From Savitreella phatthalungensis (lineage: Eukaryota), in the NCBI GenBank assembly GCA_051599415.1, contig AP039708.1, forward strand, positions 62,001 to 126,000: DNA of 64,000 nt. The letters run 5' to 3'. Below the pieces are notes generated by a model, which was not told the origin of the DNA, did not search any database, and was given only the letters and a program-made list of their open reading frames with translations. Shown here one piece after another: positions 27,727 through 55,754 of this stretch (the stretch's first letter is position 1; every line of letters begins with the position of its first letter). The position numbers and the translations under genes are program-made.

Positions 27727-28971
27727 ATGGGACGTTCAACGCGTCCAGTGAGCTATAGAGAAAGCTCTTCGGAGAGTGAACCCCCTGCAATCAGCACGGT
27801 TAAGCGGGAAGTTGACGATGATGGCGAATGGACCATCGACCGGACAGAGACAACCACGGTCTCGACGTCGACCAAAAAGCGGCGTGCCACACGAATCAAG
27901 ACAGAAGCAACCACGGTCATCTCACCAAGTCGAGCTCGAGTAAAGTCTGAGCCTCAGACTCCGGAGGGTATCACTCCTCGCCGAACTCCTCGTAGATCAA
28001 CGCCGCGAAGCACGACCCTCTCGGATGCCGTTGTCAAGCCTGGAGATGTCGACATTGAGGATCTGCCGATACGACCTCCCGAGGATTGGGAAGAGGTCTA
28101 CGAGTTGCTGCGAACTCAGCGGAGGAATGGTCCTCTGGCTCCGGTAGACACGATGGGCTGTGACGCACACGTGCTGGCCCAGCAGGATCCCAAGGTAGGC
28201 CGTCTGCACAACCTAGTCTCGCTCGTTCTCTCCTCTCAGACGAAGGACACGATCAACGCAATCGCCATGACAAAGCTGAAAACGCACCTGCCTGGTGGCC
28301 TAACAGTCCAGTCGCTGCTCGACTGTCCGGCAGAGGAGCTGAACAAGCTGATCTACCCTGTTGGCTTCCACAATCGAAAGACGATCTATCTGAACCAGAT
28401 TGCTCAGATCCTGCGTGACGACTACGAGGACGACATCCCCAGAACACTGGAAGGTCTTCTGGCGCTGCCTGGTGTAGGCCCGAAGATGGCCTACCTGTGT
28501 CTGAACTCGACTGGTGACGGGACTGCGCACGGGATCGGTGTGGACGTGCACGTCCACCGGATAGCCAACATGTTCAACTGGACATCGTCCCCACCGCACA
28601 CCTACAAGACGCACACGCCCGAGAAGACCCGGCTTGCGCTCGAGTCGTGGCTGCCTCGTGATCGGTGGGGTGAGATCAACCACCTGCTCGTCGGCCTTGG
28701 TCAGACGGTATGCTTACCGCGTGGCCGAAGGTGCTGGGAATGTCTGCTAGGCAAGCAAGCCAAATGTCCTGCCGCTCTCGAAGGCGCCCACCTAGGTCAA
28801 CCTCCGCCAGGATACCGTGGTCGCAAGACCCCCGTCAAATCATCAGATCCCGATCCCCACAACGACTCTCCACAACAACAGCACCCGCTAGAACAACTCG
28901 AGGCTATCAAGCAAGAGCTCGAGGACGAAGAGGCGGCCGAGTTAAGCGTCCGATCACCGTACTTCAAATAG
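27727..28971 (+). CDS. NTH1: Endonuclease III homolog (DNA glycosylase/AP lyase)
   Basis: APVDTMGC, LSSQTKD, HhH motif LPGVGPKMA, GIGVDVHVHRI and a 4Fe-4S motif CxxxxxxCxxCxxxxxxxC; first ATG at 27727. Confidence 0.95.
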   Translation: MGRSTRPVSYRESSSESEPPAISTVKREVDDDGEWTIDRTETTTVSTSTKKRRATRIKTEATTVISPSRARVKSEPQTPEGITPRRTPRRSTPRSTTLSDAVVKPGDVDIEDLPIRPPEDWEEVYELLRTQRRNGPLAPVDTMGCDAHVLAQQDPKVGRLHNLVSLVLSSQTKDTINAIAMTKLKTHLPGGLTVQSLLDCPAEELNKLIYPVGFHNRKTIYLNQIAQILRDDYEDDIPRTLEGLLALPGVGPKMAYLCLNSTGDGTAHGIGVDVHVHRIANMFNWTSSPPHTYKTHTPEKTRLALESWLPRDRWGEINHLLVGLGQTVCLPRGRRCWECLLGKQAKCPAALEGAHLGQPPPGYRGRKTPVKSSDPDPHNDSPQQQHPLEQLEAIKQELEDEEAAELSVRSPYFK

Positions 28972-36401: not shown

Positions 36402-37286
36402 ATGAACACATTCTCGCCCGCAGCAAGGGCAGTCGCACACCACTCTTCTCGTTCAACCACCTCAGCCGCATCCGCCCATCACAATCATCATCACGGACGT
36501 ATGGCAGCAGCTGTCGCAATCGCATCACCAACACTGTCCCCGATCGCGGGCGCACAGCCTACATCGCCAAGCTACTTTGATGACCATCACACCGCCAGAC
36601 ATCATGCGAATGCGCGTCACCGACCGCGTTCTCGCAGGGACCGAAATAGCAACAGTCATGGCCATGCTGGCAGTGGCGCAACGTCGAGCGCATCGGGCTG
36701 GCCTGCACTCGATCCGCCAAACCTCATGCTAGGTGCGTCACGTGCACCACTCTCAGCCACCGTTGACCGGCGTCACAACCGCGCTTCACAGACAGACACT
36801 CCCGCGGCCTCAGCGACATTGAAATCTCCACGCCGTAGACCCCCGCAGTCTCAGCGCAAGCTCCTCGGCAGCAACCCACAGCACCTGATCTACTCGCCTG
36901 CGTCACCACAGCTGATCGCTGCACAGTCGCCGTCGATTCCCTGCACACCGCTCGTTTTGGATCCATCGTCGGACCCTTTCGCACTTGCTCCAACAGAGGC
37001 AGGCGTCAGCGGGGGCATCAACGCTGGGCTTGGCATCGGTGGGCCGCTCTCTGCCTTCTCCGTCGCAGCTGCGCTCCACAACTCAGTCGCTGCAGCGGGA
37101 CGCTCAGGCCAAGCTGTCTCCCCACGCATGGTCGGTGCAGCTTTGGCTTCCATGAGAGCTCAACAGCAACAACAACAGCAGCAGCACTCAAATCCGGGCG
37201 CAAGGAGACTCTACTCTTCAGTCGCAGCATCAGGATCGTCAGCGAGCGTGCCACCCCCCACCCATGACATCCCGCCAGCTGCATAG
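36402..37286 (+). CDS. Hypothetical low-complexity protein (Ser/Pro/Ala/His-rich); start uncertain (36118 region to 36402)
   Basis: Long ORF with coding-like composition from MNTFSPAARA. It contains SPQLIAAQSPSIPCTPLVL, which recalls an SP..SP.P.TPL.L motif of fungal hypothetical proteins. Confidence 0.55.
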   Translation: MNTFSPAARAVAHHSSRSTTSAASAHHNHHHGRMAAAVAIASPTLSPIAGAQPTSPSYFDDHHTARHHANARHRPRSRRDRNSNSHGHAGSGATSSASGWPALDPPNLMLGASRAPLSATVDRRHNRASQTDTPAASATLKSPRRRPPQSQRKLLGSNPQHLIYSPASPQLIAAQSPSIPCTPLVLDPSSDPFALAPTEAGVSGGINAGLGIGGPLSAFSVAAALHNSVAAAGRSGQAVSPRMVGAALASMRAQQQQQQQQHSNPGARRLYSSVAASGSSASVPPPTHDIPPAA

Positions 37287-45917: not shown

Positions 45918-47921
45918 ATGGCTGACAACAGCACCCACAAGATTCTCAAGAAAGGTGCTCTAGACCTCTCGCTCTTTTGCAAAGAACAGATCGAATTCAT
46001 CGAGTCTGAGAGAGCACTTGAAGCTCAGGAGACACAGCTTGCAGCTTCTGCATTCTCTCGTAAGGAGCTAGAGAGACGAGGTCATGCAGTCCTCAACCTC
46101 GAAGTCGGAGGCACTCGTACCGGCTTTGGTGGCAAAACACTCGTAGAACTTGTACCACGCTCATCCACGCGTGATGGCAGATCCTCCTTCTCAGATGCCA
46201 TGCGCACAGGCGATCTCGTCCGTCTGCAACCGCAGCTCGCAGGATCGGCCAACAAGATCGAGCTTGCGGCAGCATCAAAAGACGGTGTCGATGGTGTGGT
46301 CACAAGGGTGTCAGACGACAAGATCACCTTGACCCTAGACCGGGAGGATGATGATGTCCCACAGGCGGCAACACTCTGGCTTGTGAAGCTTGCAAATTCC
46401 GTGACGTATGATCGAATGCTTGACAAGCTGCGAAAGATGCAGGAGCACCCTGAGAAAGCGTCATCCCTCACCCGCATACTGCTAGGTCAATCATCTCCTT
46501 CGGATCCAGACGCTTCCAATACCAAACTTGACTACTTCGATCTCACCCTTAATGCTACCCAGAAAGCTGCAGTCGTCCACGTCCTCGCATCACCCGAGCT
46601 CGCCCTCATTCACGGGCCACCAGGTACAGGCAAGACGTATACGCTCGTCGAAGTCATTCGCCAGCTCCATCTCCAGAAGAAGCGCGTCCTCGTGTGCGGA
46701 CCCTCCAACATCTCCGTCGACAACATCGTCGAACGACTCGCGCCGACCGGCGTTCCCATCGTCCGCACGGGTCACCCTGCACGACTACTGCCATCGGTCG
46801 TGGACCACGCTATCGATGTCCTGAGCCGGACTTCTGATGCTGGGGAGATCGTGCGGGATATCCGGAAAGAGCTCGATCAGAATCTTGCGAAGCTCGGTCG
46901 GGCGAAGGGGAAAGCGCGGCGTGAAATCTACGGTGAGGTGAAGGCGCTGCGGAAGGAGTTCCGCGTGCGTGAACGCCGAGCGGTGGATGAGATCCTGCGC
47001 GGATCGGCTGTCGTCCTGACGACCCTCCACGGCGCAGGCGCCAATCTCCTCCAAGGTGAACACTTCGACGTCGTCATCATCGACGAAGCAGCCCAAGCGC
47101 TCGAAGCATCATGCTGGATCCCACTCCTCACAGCCACAAAGTGCATCCTAGCTGGAGACCACCTCCAGCTATCCCCACTCGTCAGAGCCACCAAACCAAA
47201 ACCCACCCTGTTCGAACGCCTTCTGACCCTGCACGGTGACGGCATCAAAAGACTCCTGTCGGTCCAGTACCGGATGCACGAGCGGATATGCGAGTTTCCT
47301 TCCAGGGCACTCTACGGTGGCGAGCTCGTGGCAGGTGAGGGCGTTGCACACCGACTGCTGTCTGACCTGCCGCGCGTCATGGAAACAGAAGACACGATGG
47401 AGCCAGTCGTGCTGATCGACACGCAGGGCGACGTGTGTCCTGAGAACGCGGACGACGGTGTTCCCGAGGGCAAGTCACTGCAGGAATCAAAGTCGAACGA
47501 TGGAGAGGTCTCGCTGGTGGTAGGTCACGTGACAAAGCTGTGCCAGGCAGGTGGGGTCGATCCGGAGGACATCGCAGTGGTGACACCGTACTCTGCCCAG
47601 GTGGCTGCCATTCGACAAGCCCTGAGCGCGCTCGAGCGTGACAACGACTCCAGGATCGCGTACACAGCAGTCGAAGTAGGCACCGTCGACGGATTCCAAG
47701 GAAGGGAAAAACAAGCAATCGTCCTATCCCTCGTCAGGTCAAACGACAAAGGTCAAGTCGGATTCCTTGCAGACAAGAGGAGGCTCAACGTCGCCATGAC
47801 AAGGCCCAAGCGTCATCTCTGTGTGATCGGAGACTCCACCACCATCACCCGAGGAGGTGGAAAATTCCTAAAGGACTGGATGACCTGGCTGACGGAGAAT
47901 GCAGACCTCAGGTACCCATAG
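45918..47921 (+). CDS. HCS1: SF1 Upf1-like helicase Hcs1/IGHMBP2 (DNA helicase A)
   Basis: IHGPPGTGKT, SNISVDN, IIDEAAQALE, LAGDHLQL, QYRMH, TVDGFQGREK and RRLNVAMTR. Confidence 0.94.
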   Translation: MADNSTHKILKKGALDLSLFCKEQIEFIESERALEAQETQLAASAFSRKELERRGHAVLNLEVGGTRTGFGGKTLVELVPRSSTRDGRSSFSDAMRTGDLVRLQPQLAGSANKIELAAASKDGVDGVVTRVSDDKITLTLDREDDDVPQAATLWLVKLANSVTYDRMLDKLRKMQEHPEKASSLTRILLGQSSPSDPDASNTKLDYFDLTLNATQKAAVVHVLASPELALIHGPPGTGKTYTLVEVIRQLHLQKKRVLVCGPSNISVDNIVERLAPTGVPIVRTGHPARLLPSVVDHAIDVLSRTSDAGEIVRDIRKELDQNLAKLGRAKGKARREIYGEVKALRKEFRVRERRAVDEILRGSAVVLTTLHGAGANLLQGEHFDVVIIDEAAQALEASCWIPLLTATKCILAGDHLQLSPLVRATKPKPTLFERLLTLHGDGIKRLLSVQYRMHERICEFPSRALYGGELVAGEGVAHRLLSDLPRVMETEDTMEPVVLIDTQGDVCPENADDGVPEGKSLQESKSNDGEVSLVVGHVTKLCQAGGVDPEDIAVVTPYSAQVAAIRQALSALERDNDSRIAYTAVEVGTVDGFQGREKQAIVLSLVRSNDKGQVGFLADKRRLNVAMTRPKRHLCVIGDSTTITRGGGKFLKDWMTWLTENADLRYP

Positions 47922-48260: not shown

Positions 48261-48668
48261 CCTTTTTTGTTTGATCTTTTTCAAATTGCTTTTTCGTCAT
48301 CTCAAATTGCTTTTTGTCATTTTAAATGATATCTTCATCTGCTATTCATTGAAGATATTATCTGGTGACAGGACAGATAGGATCTGAGTGAGTCCCGGCT
48401 TCCATGCTTCTATACTTTCCGTACATCGTCCGTATGCAGTCGCTGCTGGCTATCGCTGACGCGTTCGATTGTCTGACCACTCGCTTACTGTCAAGATGGC
48501 CAGGTCTCTCATCCTTGTCCGTGCCCGTGCTCCCGCTCTCTGCCGGTGTGGGCGTAACGCGTCGCCGGCTCCACACCTGTCCCTGATTCGCGCGTATGGC
48601 TGTGTCAGGACAGATGCACGCCAAAGACGCGTTCCCTCTCGTAATCCTTTCGAGTAATTCATTTGTCT

Positions 48669-49922
48669 ATGAGCACGCGTCCAGTCAAGAAAGCCAAGAT
48701 GACAGACGCTCCAATGACAGACACGCCTGCCCTCCCTGCCAACACCGTCCTCGATGCGTCAGTCTTTGCACGACTCCAGGCGTCGATCGACCGAGACGCC
48801 GACTTCAGAGAGCAGCTCCGTGGAGTGACGCGCGAACTCGACCGGGTCGCTCGCAGCATCAGCTTCATCCTCCTGGGCGCCCACGGCGGTCCAAACGCTC
48901 TCGCTGCCGAAGCTTCAGGACTGCCACCGCTCTTCGACGCCCAGCGAACGTACCTCGCACAGCTAGCCTCCATCGTCTCGGGCCAGCCGTACTACAAGTA
49001 CGCGTCGATGTTCTCGTCGCAGATGCAGGCTGCATGCTTTGGTGTCGTGTTTGCCCGGTGGCTTGGTGTCGGGGGCGCGCGTGGTGAGTTGCTGACGCTG
49101 GAACAGGTGGGCGAAACCCTCGGTGTCCCCACAACCTCAACCTCCTCCTCCGCCACCGACGACGACCACTTCCACCTCCCGCTCGAGGACTACCTCCACG
49201 CCCTCATCTCCCTCATCAACGAGCTCTCACGCCTGGCAGTGAACGCCGCAACACACGCAGACTACACACTCCCACCAAAAATCGACGCCTTCATCAAGCA
49301 ACTCTTTGCAGGATTTCAGGTCCTGAACCTCAAGAACGACTCGCTCAGACGCCGCTTCGACGGGATCAAGTACGACGTCAAGAAGGTCGAGGAAGTCGTG
49401 TACGACCTGCGACTTCGAGGTCTCGTCGGCGATGGCATCCCCGCAGACGCCGTCACCCCAGCTGCTGCAACTGCTCCTGCACCTGCACAGCCGTACCTGA
49501 AGATCAAGCTGCTGACACCGGAGGCGCGTGCACCGACGCGTGGGTCTGCGTTGGCCGCAGGGTACGACATGTACGCTTCCGAGAGCTGCGTTGTCGGGTG
49601 TGGTGGCGGGCGGACGCTCGTGAAGACTGGGGTGGCGATGGCTGTGCCGGCTGACTGCTATGGCCGTGTGGCGCCTCGGTCTGGGCTGGCTGTGAAGAGC
49701 GGGATCGCGACTGGCGCAGGCGTCATCGACGCTGACTACCGCGGCGAAGTCAGAATCCTCCTCTTCAACCATCACCCCTCCCAAGACTTCCAAATCAACA
49801 CGGGAGACCGGATCGCCCAACTCGTCCTCGAGCGCATCTACACCCCAGACCTCCACGTCGTCCAGGATCTAGACGAGAGTGTCAGAGGTGCAGGAGGATT
49901 CGGATCAACAGGTACCAATTAG
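48669..49922 (+). CDS. Translin-dUTPase fusion protein
   Basis: One stop-free ORF. Translin spans about 48750-49427 ([74 protein letters not shown]). An Ala/Pro linker follows. The dUTPase spans about 49491-49919 with motifs I-V ([44 protein letters not shown]). Confidence 0.9.
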
Positions 49923-49991
49923 CAAATGATTAGAGAGAAAAAAACAACACATACACTATACGACGCTCTAGACACCCTCGACCTCTCACCT

Positions 49992-50735
49992 CTACCGCAG
50001 GCAGGTGTTGAAAATCCGGCGTAAGAAGCGCATGATGAGTCTGCGATTCTGTGGGGTGTTGTACTGCTGCCAGTTGGCTCCACCGGCCCCTGCCCCCTGT
50101 TGCTGCTGCTGCTGCTGTGGGTAGTATTGCTGCTGTGGTGGGTATGGGCCTTGACCAGCCACGCCCTGTGGTCCTGGAGCCGGATACCCTTGGGCACCGC
50201 CCTGCGGGAACGTGACGTAGATCCTGCCCTCGTTGTGCTCTGTGCGGTATTGGAAGTTATGCTGCCTGCAGAGTTCCTCGATCGCTGGCTTGAGCTTCTG
50301 GATGTGTCCGGCAGAGTGGATTCCCTTGCCGACGATGATGTGCAGGTGATTGTCCCCGCGACTCATGCACGCCACCACCCGCTGCTCGACGTACACCTTG
50401 GCCTCGTCGACGTGCAAGCCGTGCAGATCGATCTCGTCCGCAGCGCACCCTGCATTGTTCGCCCTGAACACGTACAGCGCTGCAGCCTCGTTGTGCATCT
50501 GCATCTGTCGACCGTGCGACGCAGCCTCCTCGCTCTTAGCCTTCGCCAGCGCACCGTCACCACGCGCGTACGCTGCCTTGCTAGCCTCGATGCACCGACC
50601 ACGCATGTTCGCCTCGCTAGCAGCCAGACCCCGCAGCCGATCGTACTCAGCATCGTCAGCATGGTTGCCCCCTCGCCGGTCGTGGTTGAATGCAGGGATG
50701 CCCTGGGGCCGGCCGATGTTGGTGAACGCCGACAT
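49992..50735 (-). CDS. DUF1771 + Smr-domain protein (Ypl199c-like putative endonuclease)
   Basis: EYDRLRGLA...SKAAYARGDGALAK, IDLHGLHVDEA and HIIVGKGIHS; first ATG at 50735. Confidence 0.9.
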   Translation of the reverse strand: MSAFTNIGRPQGIPAFNHDRRGGNHADDAEYDRLRGLAASEANMRGRCIEASKAAYARGDGALAKAKSEEAASHGRQMQMHNEAAALYVFRANNAGCAADEIDLHGLHVDEAKVYVEQRVVACMSRGDNHLHIIVGKGIHSAGHIQKLKPAIEELCRQHNFQYRTEHNEGRIYVTFPQGGAQGYPAPGPQGVAGQGPYPPQQQYYPQQQQQQQGAGAGGANWQQYNTPQNRRLIMRFLRRIFNTCLR

Positions 50736-51168
50736 GGGCGGCGGCCTGATGTGGTCGTGGAGGATGTGTGATTTCGCAGCCGTCGTCAGTCGTCTGACGA
50801 TCGGAACACCCAGCGATTTAGGGCCGGCAGTGGTGGAAAAGAGGTAGATACCTGTGAATACACGTCTGGTCGCCAGCGGATGAGTTATCTGGACGGAGTC
50901 CTGGTGCTTTTGGGTTATGGATACCGAAGCCTTGTTTCTTGTGGTACCGGCCGATCGATCGATGACCCGCACTGTTTGAGCTCCTCGTCTCGAGAGCTCC
51001 GGGAATCCGAGGCCATCGAACCTTGTTTTTTTGTCTCGGGGAGATTTTTTTCTTAATCTGGAAAGGGAGGTCAAGGTCGCACAAGAATCAAATTTAAATC
51101 TTAAATCTGCCACAGATCTGTGACAGGCTAGCTCGCACAAGAGATAACTCTAAAAGGAGTGTGATACG

Positions 51169-51660
51169 CTAGGACCCCGGAGTTGACGTCGGCGAGAAGG
51201 TCGGTGTGGATGTGGCGACGACGGCTTGGGGGTCAGCCGTGGTCAGGTCGTCTGTGGTGAAGATTCGAGGTCCTGGTCCTAGGAACGGGGTGACACAGGA
51301 GATCGAGCCTTCTGCAGTGCACGTGAAGACGACTTCCAATATCGGCGTTTGTGTGGGAGTCGCCGTAGGTGTGGGACTTGACTCCGAGTAGATAGGAGAA
51401 GAGGATGACGGCTGTGGTTGCCAGTATGGTTTTTCTGCGAGAGATTCTGATGGGGTTGCTGCGGCTGGTGTGGGCGATGTAAATGCCGAGAAGAAATCTG
51501 TTGGGATTGTGGTCGAGTTGGTGATCTCGTCGAGCGCGATGCCAGCACCCCTATACGGCATCTTTTTGAGGTGATCGCGGTGAGCACTATCTGTAGGATG
51601 CGGAAACGCTAGCGCTAGCGCTATGCATGTGCACAAGATGTAGACCGGACGGTACTTCAT
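51169..51660 (-). CDS. Small secreted Ser/Thr/Pro-rich protein (hypothetical)
   Basis: 163 aa; signal peptide MKYRPVYILCTCIALALAFP, mucin-like composition, and one Cys pair (CTAEGSISC). Confidence 0.55.
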   Translation of the reverse strand: MKYRPVYILCTCIALALAFPHPTDSAHRDHLKKMPYRGAGIALDEITNSTTIPTDFFSAFTSPTPAAATPSESLAEKPYWQPQPSSSSPIYSESSPTPTATPTQTPILEVVFTCTAEGSISCVTPFLGPGPRIFTTDDLTTADPQAVVATSTPTFSPTSTPGS

Positions 51661-51941
51661 GAGGAAGGATATTGAGTCGTCGTGTTGTCTTGATCACTGT
51701 CGTGGGTCGGTGCACGTCGCGAGCAAGCAGACAGACAGGCAGGTGATCATGCGACGATCGAAGAGCCTTTGTAGAGGGATGAGCGGATACGGTGACGGAC
51801 GGCTCGGAAGAGCATGACCTACCACGCGACCTGATTTGCAACACGTCTCCCGCAAACACAACCACCCGAAATGGTCTACGGCTCACATGGGCTGAAGGGT
51901 CGACGGGATTGCAATGACATTTGAATGAAAGGACTGACTGT

Positions 51942-54900
51942 CTAGAACCATGATGGTGAATGAGTTGAGTTGATGGGCGTTCGAGGTGATTTCGGCTGCC
52001 ACGCGGGCGGTTGGTGCGTGGCTTCCAAGGGTAGACTTGCCGCAGATGATCTGGCTGTCGAGGAGATGTAGGAGGAGGATGAAGGTGTAGGTGGCCCAGG
52101 TGATTGTTTGTTGCGAGAGACCCAGGCGTGGACGATGGCGTTCTCGAAAGAGCACGCGAGACTGTCGAGTGGCGAAGCTGTGGAAGCACGCGACAGTGAT
52201 CGCTCGAGTCCGAAGCTCGTCGTCGAGAGAGGCGATGAGGGAGAGGAGATGGTCGAGCGGGTGAGAGGCCGATTTGTCTGCCTAGATTGAGGCAACTGTA
52301 TCCCGGGAGATTCTCCAGCAGCCGAACAAGCGTGGTCTTGCAGTGGCGGCACATACAGACGAACTGCCGGACACTCAGGCTCGAGTATAGATGACAGTAT
52401 ATGATCTAACTCAAGGAGACTGGCTTGCAACTTGAGATGGCGATCGACTGCCGTGGCGTCAGTACATTGGCTTGCTCGGGATTCTGTTGAGTTTGATCTC
52501 ACGTTGACGCAGCTTGGCAAGGTCGACAAGGGAGAGTGCGGGATCTTGCGAGGATGGAAGTCTGCTGGCTAGACTTGGTGCTGCTGCTGGGCCATTGTAA
52601 ATGCGGACGAGGTCGTCGAGGAAGACATCTGGTGTGGCGTCAGTCTGGGTTTCGTTAAGCGGTGGTGATCTCAATTGTACTTACCGAGTGATGGAACGAG
52701 CGGTCGCTGGGCTTTGCTGTGAATCATCTTGCGGTATGCCGCAAAGTCGTCCTTTATGCAGACAATGCCGTTGAGTTGAGCCCAGGAGACGGCGTAGTGG
52801 GTCCCTAGGATGGCCACCGCTTCTCGCACAGGCTTGATACATCCACCATCTGTCAGACCACGGACAAGACAGAAGAGTGTGTTGTAGTCGCCTGCAAACC
52901 GAAGTTCTTCGCACAGGTCGATCAGCCATCGCACGTTCTGGACCATATCGTTGCTCGTCAACACACGCCTGGAAGTCTGCACGTCAGTGATCATTCAGCT
53001 TTTGAGAGGGACAGGGTGTCGAGAAGGACTCACCCAGTTGGCGAGCATCGCATTGCGACGACGAACATTGCTGAGAGCGATAAGCACGGGTGATGAGCCG
53101 CGGTAGACCGCTTGACGCGACCTGAGCCAGTACGCAATCGACTCTGGGACTAGGACTGCGCGGAGGAGGTAGAGGGAGGTGGATGCGAGCACTTGAACTA
53201 GCTTGGGAAAGTCGAGGTGCTGAGAGATGTGCTGTATGGACGGGAAGGTCGCGATGGCGTTCGCTTCTTGGACGGAAAGGGCATTCGCGCGGGCGAGGGC
53301 AGCATCGAGTGTTTCCTGAGAGATGGAGGCGGCTTCGCCGGCGGCGGCGTGACGAGCATCCGCATTCAGGACGAGGGTGAGTGAGCACTCGATTTCGCGG
53401 GACGCGGTGAAGTGGCTGGCCGCACGAAGCTCTGTCGCAAAGACAAAAGCCATCTCCTGCATTGTCTCCGAGGTTGACCAGTCTCGAGGCGCATTTTGCG
53501 ACATCCACCTCACCACTAGACTAACGAGCTTGTTGCACGCCGCGTTCTCGCCGATGTCAGATCGTCGCCAGAAAGTGTGGATGATGAGCTGCAGGAACTG
53601 GGAATGGGTGACGGTGAGAGCGTGGTAATTGAGAAGATGATCGACATAGGATGTAGGGTCTGTCAGCTTGGTCGAGCTGGTGAGGAGTTCCGCAAGGAGA
53701 GCGGGAATTGTTCCTGCGACCGCAACGCTGCTGTACTTGGTCTTTTCATAGATGAGCACGATATGGCCACGGTCGTCACGGACGAACCTGAGTTCTTTTC
53801 CCTCGACGCTCGAAGCCGGCTTGCCGTACGGGGTCACACGCTGATCGTTGCGTAAAGTTAGGGTGCTGATGGACTTGACGAGCTTCGACAAGATGCCGCG
53901 GTCGGTCTGCAAACGCGAAGATGTGGCGGCGGGATCGACGGTGCTCGACTGCTGGCGCTCGTCCTCGGAGTCGTCCTCGAAGATGCTGTCACTTGACGTC
54001 AGGCGCGAGAAGGGGATCGTCGGAGCTGGAACTTTTCTGGTGCGTGATGGCTTGCGGTCTTGGAGGGGACTGTGCGGGAGGACATCGTCGTGAGCCATGG
54101 CCTCGTTGTAACTCTCCTGTGTGCCGTATCCTGGTCGAGTGGCGGCATCGAGACCGAAGTTGAGCAGTCCGGATGGTGAGTTCTTCCTGTCCTGGCTGAA
54201 GGTCGGACGGGGCGGGCGAGCGAGGGACGAGGCCTTCGATGAGTTGATGGCCGACCATTCGGTACTCATGTCACTCGAGTTGTTTGCTGCGAGACCGGGC
54301 GTTGACATTGTCGGTGCGGGACTGGCGACAAAATCGAGGCTGTCGAGAGCACGGCGTGGCGTGTGAGACTTGCGCGATTCGCGCTTACGCGAAGACGATG
54401 TCATGGGCTGGCGACCACGGGGGCCTTGATCTTTTGGAGTCTTCGGGATGACGCTGGCTCTCGGGGTCTCGAGCGTCTCCGCATTGTCTTCCAGGTCGGC
54501 ATCGCTCGGCACATTCGCTTCAGGTCGAGGTTGGCCGCCACTATTACCTCCCTTGGCCACGGCAGAAACAGCACGATCAAGTTCACGAGCAATCTCGTCG
54601 AGCTCAGGAGTCTCGTCAGCGTACAGATGGCGATGCTGACGACGTCTTCGTCGTGACGCGAATTCTTCGACCTCGCTCTCTGACGACGGATAGATGAAGA
54701 GGTCTGCATTCTTGATGATACCTCGGCCGGTGTGCTGGGCTGACAGCTGACGTCGCACGGCGAGACTCGGTCGCTTGCGTAGCATAACGCCTGGCTGAGT
54801 CAGGTCTTCGGCGAGGGAAGACAGGTCACTGTCGGTGTCGATGTCAGACATCGTGTGGGAGCTCATCATCCGAGACATCGGTGGCGCCTGTCGAGGTCGC

Positions 54901-55754
54901 TTCTGCTCACCCTTGCTTGTCAAACTTGCAGACCCGAAGAGCAAGCGATCGACCGAGCTGCTCGAGTCATTGGTCGAGTACGACGTGCACAGGCGGCTGG
55001 ACATGTGTGGGAACGGCGGTCTGGATAGTGAAACCGGAGCAGTGGCGTTTGAACCTTCCTCCAATCGACCGGGCGACTCGGTTCCTTGACCGTCAGTGAT
55101 ATCTTCTACGCACGTCTCCAGCGCCGGTCTGTCGAGCTCGAGACTAGTGAATCGTGGCGGTCTGGGCGAAGGCGAGCGACGTGAAGAGCTTCTAGATCCA
55201 GGTCGCGAGTGTGAGTGAGATCTGGATCTAGGCGGTGAGAGGCTTGTCAGGCTGAGCTCATGCTGAGAGGCCGGATTGGAGATGGATCTGCCTCTCGAAG
55301 GGGTGTCATCTTCGTCAGGAGGGTCGGCGAGGAGTGGTTTGTATCTGACGCTGCGACGACGTGCCGGAGGGGCTGTCGGAGAACCGCCGTCGACAGAGTC
55401 AGGACGTGACTCCGGGGTCTTGTATGCGAGAGCATCTTGCCATTGACTCCTGACAGGGGATGAATGGACCATGTGGAGGGAGCTGTCCGCCTTTGGGGTG
55501 AAGTAGTCCTCAATGACATGAACAATGGGTGTACGCAATGAGTCCGCCGCCGCTGGGCTTGCTAGCAGATTCTTAGTGGTGGTCGTGAATGTGACGCTGG
55601 AAAGCTCGACGAGCTCAGCTGAGAAGGATGAGTCGAATGACAAGGCACTGAGCGTGTCAGGACGCGGTGGACGTACAGGGATGTGTCTGTCTGGTGAGGG
55701 TGATGGACTGCAGTTCGGGGTATGACGGGATGCCGGTCTTGATGTGCATGGCAT
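51942..55754 (-). CDS. Divergent RasGEF (REM + CDC25-like) domain protein; introns 52977-53033, 52629-52684, 52448-52502
   Basis: REM-like AVAGTIPALLAELL...YVDHLL. Splicing at GTGAGT, GTAAGT and GTGAGA donors with CTGAC branch points joins NW|TSRRVL..WLIDLCEELRFAGDYNTLFCLVRGL, FAAYRK..PLVPSL|DVFLDDL and VDLAKLRQ|L. The start is uncertain. Confidence 0.75.

Follow-up and report, generated by a model that had tools for sequence, protein, structure and literature searches.

Translin and a complete dUTPase share a single open reading frame in Savitreella phatthalungensis and its apparent relatives

Results

One open reading frame, two domains

The stretch analyzed here, 64,000 nucleotides of contig AP039708.1 from the yeast Savitreella phatthalungensis (the window, numbered from its first letter), harbors one uninterrupted open reading frame (ORF) in which a complete dUTPase follows a translin-type N-terminal half and no internal start occurs. 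Its parts are as follows.

48669–49922, + strand: translin–dUTPase fusion ORF, 417 codons and the stop TAG (49920–49922), intron-less
48642–48644, + strand: in-frame stop TAA 5′ of the start codon
48801–49421, + strand: translin domain, residues 45–251 by Pfam
49425–49490, + strand: Ala/Pro linker of 22 residues, residues 253–274
49432–49500, + strand: +1-frame ATG opening a 22-codon frame that begins MASP and is ended by TGA at 49498–49500
49461–49488, + strand: imperfect 6/12-base tandem repeat (CTGCAC / GCTCCTGCAACT) encoding the Ala/Pro part of the linker
49491–49919, + strand: dUTPase half, residues 275–417 (Pfam span 286–415)
49554–49568, + strand: dUTPase motif I, AAGYD, residues 296–300
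49674–49685, + strand: dUTPase motif II, PRSG, residues 336–339
49719–49751, + strand: dUTPase motif III, residues 351–361
49803–49823, + strand: dUTPase motif IV, GDRIAQL, residues 379–385
49884–49913, + strand: dUTPase motif V, C-terminal arm, residues 406–415

The ATG at 48669 is the first possible AUG, because the in-frame TAA at 48642–48644 lies upstream of it. In-frame methionine codons are found at residues 1, 11, 16, 114, 119, 301 and 324, and none occurs between the translin core and dUTPase motif I; with no in-frame methionine from residue 119 to residue 301, the complete dUTPase is therefore left without an AUG of its own. A profile search of the ORF returned Translin, dUTPase and the related DCD as its only Pfam families. 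Translin (PF01997) is matched over profile positions 1–205 of 205 (E = 9.6e-53; 179.6 bits against a cut-off of 25.9), and dUTPase (PF00692) over positions 3–129 of 129 (E = 1.7e-39; 135 bits against a cut-off of 22). These end-to-end matches and the codon listing bear out a first-pass annotation of this DNA, which had described one 417-codon ORF carrying a full translin and a complete dUTPase, a junction with neither a stop nor an in-frame ATG before motif I, and an Ala/Pro linker of about 21 residues (22 by our count). The out-of-frame ATG that it had placed at 49432 also exists, yet its frame ends after only 22 codons.

Reading the linker by eye, we found no canonical intron that would join the ATG at 49432 to the dUTPase frame. 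An intron-like string within the translin half (GTGAGT...CTGAC...CAG, 49084–49106) was dismissed as well, since it measures 23 bases and codes for the conserved segment GELLTLEQ.

The translin half

Alignments with translin sequences of the Protein Data Bank (PDB) span residues 20–254 of the fusion protein. Nine such sequences match the N-terminal half with E values from 3e-47 (8z7a) to 1e-35, whereas the TRAX chain 3pja_J matches it at only 7e-8 (35.6 bits). Because translin chains score so much better than the TRAX chain, this half is a translin paralogue and not a TRAX, in agreement with the non-TRAX type assigned at first pass.

Human translin binds nucleic acid through R21, R36, R86, R92, Q96 and R192 (PMC3834833). 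Read manually from the alignment to 3pja_A, these positions correspond to R47, R62, K110, S116, Q120 and R227 in the fusion protein, so that four of the six appear identical, one conservative (lysine for arginine) and one replaced by serine. The C-terminal segment of the domain, residues 219–252, is nearly fully invariant across the nine fused proteins described below; in the Schizosaccharomyces pombe protein, the C-terminal segment is reported to be required for both self-association and TRAX binding (PMC2875027).

In the AlphaFold2 (AF2) model, block means for the translin half are 77–94 over residues 31–150 and 171–250, with lower blocks (61–69) at residues 71–80 and in the loop at 151–170. 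Part of this loop, a Ser/Thr/Asp-rich stretch at residues 156–166 (about 49134–49166), exceeds its counterpart in the other eight fused proteins by five residues and is likewise modeled with low confidence.

The dUTPase half

The C-terminal half matches yeast Dut1 (PDB 3p48 and 3f4f) with E values of about 1e-45. Five strings in it, listed above, we take to be the five motifs described for dUTPases; all are present, and their key residues are invariant in nine of nine fused proteins, so the earlier description of five intact motifs stands for the window protein and extends to its homologues.

The core of the dUTPase is modeled with moderate confidence (block means of 56–57 over residues 321–350), and confidence is low in the first dUTPase strand and in the C-terminal arm of the monomer, a pattern compatible, as far as a predicted model goes, with a strand-swapped trimer. 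Residues 256–297 have a predicted local distance difference test score below 50. The whole model, built from a nine-row alignment, has a mean of 67.1 and a predicted template modeling score of 0.52, and its overall picture is one of two folded domains with a low-confidence tether between them.

Fused homologues

Homologues were sought in a collection of 5.8 billion proteins, in which 8000 candidates were scored, 2514 hits obtained and the best 120 examined. Both PF01997 and PF00692 occur in nine of these 120: the window's own protein (P0002), seven from Logan/ENA (P0004–P0010) and one from an unannotated assembly at the National Center for Biotechnology Information (NCBI; P0023). The nine align end to end over both domains. 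The window protein shares 55–60% identity with the other eight over aligned columns (53–60% by BLASTP), and those eight are 65–79% identical among themselves. None of the nine clusters carries a name from any source.

The linkers differ in both length (7, 13, 15, 15, 17, 17, 19, 22 and 22 residues) and sequence, where they are unrelated; all are in frame and free of stops, and they have no methionine in common. Retention of the frame through repeated changes in linker length is what would be expected under selection on a single polypeptide.

In wider searches, the two domains proved hard to find together. A HMMER search over 1.84 billion cluster representatives gave both in one of the best 150 (P0004), the others having one half only, and seven hits of odd length or range that might have been hidden fusions (P0340, P0270, P0272, P0351, P0274, P0281 and P0306) were rejected as the second domain is absent from each. 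Among contigs from metagenomes of the Joint Genome Institute (JGI), none of 80 translin loci, retained from at least 123, had a dUTPase match by tblastn. In the main text of the papers searched, no mention of translin together with dUTPase was found; translin combined with deoxyuridine or dUTP gave nothing relevant, as judged by titles and the start of abstracts; and the literature matches listed for translin in Taphrina, Protomyces or Taphrinomycotina include no report of it. The statement made at first pass, that no described fusion of this kind was known to the annotator, still holds for the literature and protein collections searched. The fusion thus appears to be a real composite gene restricted to one clade, both of its parts belonging to ordinary, well-known families.

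Phylogenetic position

Trees were computed separately for the two halves. In the translin tree (27 rows: the nine fused proteins and 18 picked from the best protein matches), the fused halves group together as one clade (88/75; recovered in 90% of bootstrap trees), which adjoins the stand-alone translin of Saitoella complicata (82/76). In the dUTPase tree (35 rows: the nine fused proteins and 26 stand-alone proteins picked from the best 120), the fused halves form one clade together with a dUTPase of Protomyces lactucae-debilis (91/86). With moderate support values and short sequences, neither tree conflicts with the fusion having arisen once, in a Taphrina/Protomyces-like lineage that had already separated from Saitoella. 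The neighboring gene, which encodes an HCS1-type helicase, has its best named match in Taphrina deformans (59% identity), with matches in Pezizomycotina at 47–54%; like the two trees, it puts the organism close to Taphrina/Protomyces.

Assemblies and reads

A Logan contig from sequencing run X1 (10,343 letters, depth 44) covers 48300–50300 with no differences and no gaps. X1 may itself be the source of the window's DNA, so that its contig tests the assembly without adding independent support. The first-pass annotation had asked that reads across the linker be inspected for an indel or stop, and here the X1 contig is identical to the window.

Run X3, which bears a different organism label, contributes low-depth pieces on 48360–48582, 48845–49042 and 49767–49958, mostly 95–99% alike; these touch both halves of the fusion and miss the linker. 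This run contains a close relative of the window's yeast. Run X4 has no match to the locus.

The +1-frame start in the linker

The string MASP occurs once among the 127,996 six-frame codon positions of the window (0.9 expected), at 49432 in the linker and 21 codons before the dUTPase core; the chance of its falling within some 150 codon positions is about 1e-3. In frame 0 the same bases read DGIP, and an initial D-G is common to four of the nine fused linkers.

Promoter and N-terminal motif

Two features at the 5′ end of the gene bear on when and where its product might act.

48459–48680, + strand: four ACGCGT (MluI cell-cycle box, MCB) sites, starting at 48459, 48557, 48627 and 48675
48687–48698, + strand: KKAK, a K-K/R-x-K motif, residues 7–10

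In fission yeast, G1/S genes under the control of MBF carry ACGCGT, the MluI cell-cycle box. Three of the four boxes lie within 210 bases 5′ of the start codon, and the fourth spans codons 3–4. The window contains 27 ACGCGT sites in all, and these four, within 222 bases, are its densest cluster, with at most two per 250 bases elsewhere; the Poisson probability is 3e-6 per stretch and, for the window as a whole, about 9e-4. By their match to the established MCB consensus, the boxes are putative MBF sites. Control of G1/S genes by MBF in fission yeast is the topic of two papers (PMC4221157 and PMC2726434), and expression of yeast DUT1 is described as peaking with the S-phase genes (PMC6063437). 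Predictions of sigma-70 promoters and of terminators were set aside, the host being eukaryotic.

A KKxK-type motif is found in six of the nine fused proteins (KKAK, KKLK, KKQK and, three times, KRQK), and the remaining three ORFs start downstream of its position. K-K/R-x-K resembles a monopartite nuclear localization signal (NLS), and the motif is a putative NLS by this resemblance. Removal of an NLS peptide by calpain has been described for the human nuclear dUTPase (PMC3098232).

Surroundings of the fusion gene

The window is a compact fungal region of mostly intron-less genes, its 64 kb holding 36 ORFs of 110 or more codons that do not overlap one another. Its genes include those for a G-alpha subunit, a gamma-tubulin-like protein, inositol-1-phosphate synthase, KTI12 and the HCS1 helicase. 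The fusion gene has the following neighbors.

45918–47921, + strand: HCS1/SMUBP-2-type helicase, upstream neighbor, 747 bases before the fusion ATG
49992–51140, − strand: DUF1771 and Smr domain protein, convergent neighbor, its ORF end 69 bases past the fusion stop

A (CTG)7 array at 50097–50117 encodes a poly-Gln run near the C terminus of the DUF1771 and Smr protein. Pieces of several other contigs map to this array, so the repeat is common in the genome. No TRAX gene was detected in the window, PF01997 being absent from all 36 scanned ORFs apart from the fusion.

A protein kinase domain extends over two adjacent ORFs on the − strand (2–925 and 1030–2967), with kinase profile positions 1–56 at the end of a 646-residue ORF and positions 102–263 in the next, which points to a single gene interrupted by an intron of about 100 bases, among the few introns of the window. 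Three ORFs have no Pfam match (E of 1e-3 or 1e-4): 52998–55754 (−), 51590–52354 (−) and 36402–37283 (+), of 919, 255 and 294 residues, respectively. A gene for an HhH-GPD glycosylase (endonuclease III-like) lies at 27727–28968 (+), 20 kb upstream of the fusion; the two are not adjacent, and we draw no link between them.

Discussion

A probable clade-conserved fusion

The locus is probably a genuine, clade-conserved fusion, in which the genes for translin and for a housekeeping trimeric dUTPase have become one intron-less ORF in a Taphrina/Protomyces-like lineage (Taphrinomycotina). Translation from the translin start would give a protein of about 45 kDa, consisting of KKxK, translin, a flexible linker and dUTPase. 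It is quite likely, judging by sequence conservation, that each half retains its ancestral activity: the dUTPase half would still trimerize and hydrolyze dUTP, because its motifs are invariant, and the translin half would still bind single-stranded nucleic acid and oligomerize, because it keeps four of the six binding residues unchanged and a fifth as a conservative replacement, along with an invariant C-terminal interface. We see an even chance that the gene is switched on at G1/S via the MCB cluster and that its product is imported into the nucleus via KKxK, which would make the fusion an S-phase nuclear dUTPase. The minimal mechanism would then be that of a nuclear S-phase dUTPase expressed solely as the tail of translin.

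Several observations weigh against this interpretation. The search for TRAX covered the window, and a second, stand-alone dUTPase, a stand-alone translin or a TRAX may exist elsewhere in the genome. The eight homologues are ORF calls from public assemblies, seen as protein only. Run X2, which shares its sample with X1, yields a contig that is 21 letters longer than the window at some point within 48302–50300 and shows no substitutions. Translin forms octamers and dUTPase trimers, so that the two symmetries are mismatched. Finally, the annotated Protomyces dUTPase (P0396), a stand-alone protein of 143 residues that starts with MASP followed by YLQVKLL, stands between the window protein and the other eight fused proteins in the dUTPase tree (96/88).

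As to the extra letters in X2, 21 is divisible by three and is also the length of the (CTG)7 array (50097–50117); this array and the linker repeat at 49461–49488 are the candidate places for the insertion.

The position of P0396 within the fused clade implies either that it is a truncated model of a fused gene or that the fusion has been undone, or toggled, in that organism. No translin protein named as from Protomyces or Taphrina is found among the best 120 matches to either half, and a stand-alone translin as close to the window protein as the fused ones are would have outranked that of Saitoella. We infer that the Protomyces locus has the same DNA and that the 143-residue protein is either a truncated model of a fused gene, making use of the out-of-frame ATG, or the product of a genuine secondary split through the change of a single base in the C-run. 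It is conceivable, though we consider it unlikely, that this C-run behind the +1-frame ATG (49432–49443) marks a place at which lineages switched between a fused and a separate dUTPase, the Protomyces protein starting at MASP.

Alternative explanations

A further step would be for translin to act as a scaffold that concentrates dUTP hydrolysis at translin-bound sites, a proposal that we regard as tentative and rather doubtful; the first-pass annotation had named ssDNA, telomeric repeats and RNA:DNA hybrids as possible sites of this kind. The alternative, that both halves simply work side by side after a neutral merger, is about as likely. It holds that adjacent genes merged in a compact genome and kept their old separate jobs; it rivals the scaffold step only, and as such we would call it evenly balanced. 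The genome is compact (69 bases to the next ORF and 36 ORFs in 64 kb), the linker is conserved in neither length nor sequence, and the fusion is confined to one narrow clade, all of which a neutral merger would accommodate. Less easily accommodated is the persistence of the fusion while its sequences diverged to 55–60% identity, and the promoter, like the N-terminal motif, looks suited to an enzyme that acts in the nucleus during S phase, although this is no proof of coupling.

An improbable rival retains the fused ORF but has it yield two proteins, either by transcription from within the translin coding region, translation then starting near 49432 at a non-AUG codon or in a shifted frame, or through proteolytic cleavage of the linker, in which case the halves would act independently. 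The +1-frame ATG at 49432 reads MASP, as does the start of the Protomyces dUTPase, and is the window's only MASP; furthermore, the linker is predicted to be disordered and might hence be cleavable. However, the frame from this ATG ends after 22 codons, there is no in-frame methionine between residues 119 and 301 and none shared by the linkers, and maintenance of the frame in all linker length changes would be needless if the dUTPase were translated alone.

Most improbable is a sequencing or assembly artefact in which one C is missing at 49440–49443 and the genome really encodes a separate translin and a MASPADA... dUTPase: one extra C would indeed yield a dUTPase of 163 residues that looks plausible, its N terminus being extended by an Ala/Pro-rich stretch as in stand-alone fungal dUTPases, and the Protomyces record begins with MASP, but the X1 contig has no differences or gaps at depth 44 (though these are probably the source reads), eight relatives have in-frame fusions, and the translin frame would overlap the dUTPase ORF by about 70 codons (the first-pass count), leaving no intergenic space, unlike the usual arrangement of eukaryotic genes. 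An indel in the C-run, offered at first pass as a refutation of the fusion, is thus unlikely in view of the eight in-frame fused homologues and the identical X1 contig.

Relation to known systems

In its full-length PF01997 match and C-terminal interface segment, the N-terminal half of the fusion is like stand-alone translins (human TSN and S. pombe Tsn1; PDB 1j1j, 3pja and 8z7a). Human translin ends in a disordered tail of 11 residues (PMC3834833); in the fusion, by contrast, a linker and an enzyme of 143 residues take the place of this tail, and KKxK is added at the N terminus. The C-terminal half is like the trimeric all-beta dUTPases (S. cerevisiae Dut1, PDB 3p48/3f4f, and human DUT) in its full-length PF00692 match and five motifs, and differs from both Dut1 and human DUT in having no start codon of its own and an N terminus tethered to translin.

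The closest known functional analogue, with no membership implied, is betaretroviral NC-dUTPase. In the protein of Mason-Pfizer monkey virus, a nucleic-acid-binding domain is joined through a flexible linker to the N terminus of a homotrimeric dUTPase, and binding of oligonucleotides is reported to order the NC domains (PMC1802613). The partner in the fungal fusion is instead the cellular, oligomerizing, all-helical translin, and not a small viral zinc-knuckle NC, which is not among the Pfam matches. Tandem multi-domain dUTPases, such as Caenorhabditis DUT-1 and proteins of Salix and dinoflagellates, likewise make dUTPase part of a longer chain, and no other kind was as common among the long hits; they repeat dUTPase itself, and none has a translin domain.

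The translin–TRAX hetero-octamer C3PO, an RNase, is a further point of comparison, as the translin half contains the segment that S. pombe translin is reported to need for TRAX binding (PMC2875027). The literature surveyed describes no C3PO with a dUTPase attached. A 6:2 translin:TRAX ratio is quoted for some C3PO particles (PMC6144819). If the fusion protein joins TRAX, such a particle would, by arithmetic only, carry six translin tails and hence two dUTPase trimers.

S. pombe Tsn1 is reported to act independently of Trax in the removal of RNA polymerase II and in the suppression of transcription-associated recombination (PMC9246224). In yeast, uracil is reported to build up at loci with high transcription, and additional Dut1 to reduce it (PMC6063437). 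Tethering of dUTPase to translin would be consistent with both findings. On a Rosetta-stone reading, which we consider unlikely, the fusion would couple the Trax-independent role of translin at transcribed or replication-stressed DNA to local removal of dUTP, such that repair-type synthesis at these sites would be kept uracil-free.

Tying an octamer-forming domain to a trimer-forming one poses a structural puzzle. The fusion also has a bearing on annotation, as gene models in this clade may represent only a fragment of a longer gene, the Protomyces dUTPase of 143 residues being a candidate. Translin was discovered through its binding to DNA at chromosomal breakpoints, and its job on DNA is still debated. 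A long-kept fusion with an enzyme that excludes uracil would be an unbiased evolutionary hint that the two proteins share a place or a process.

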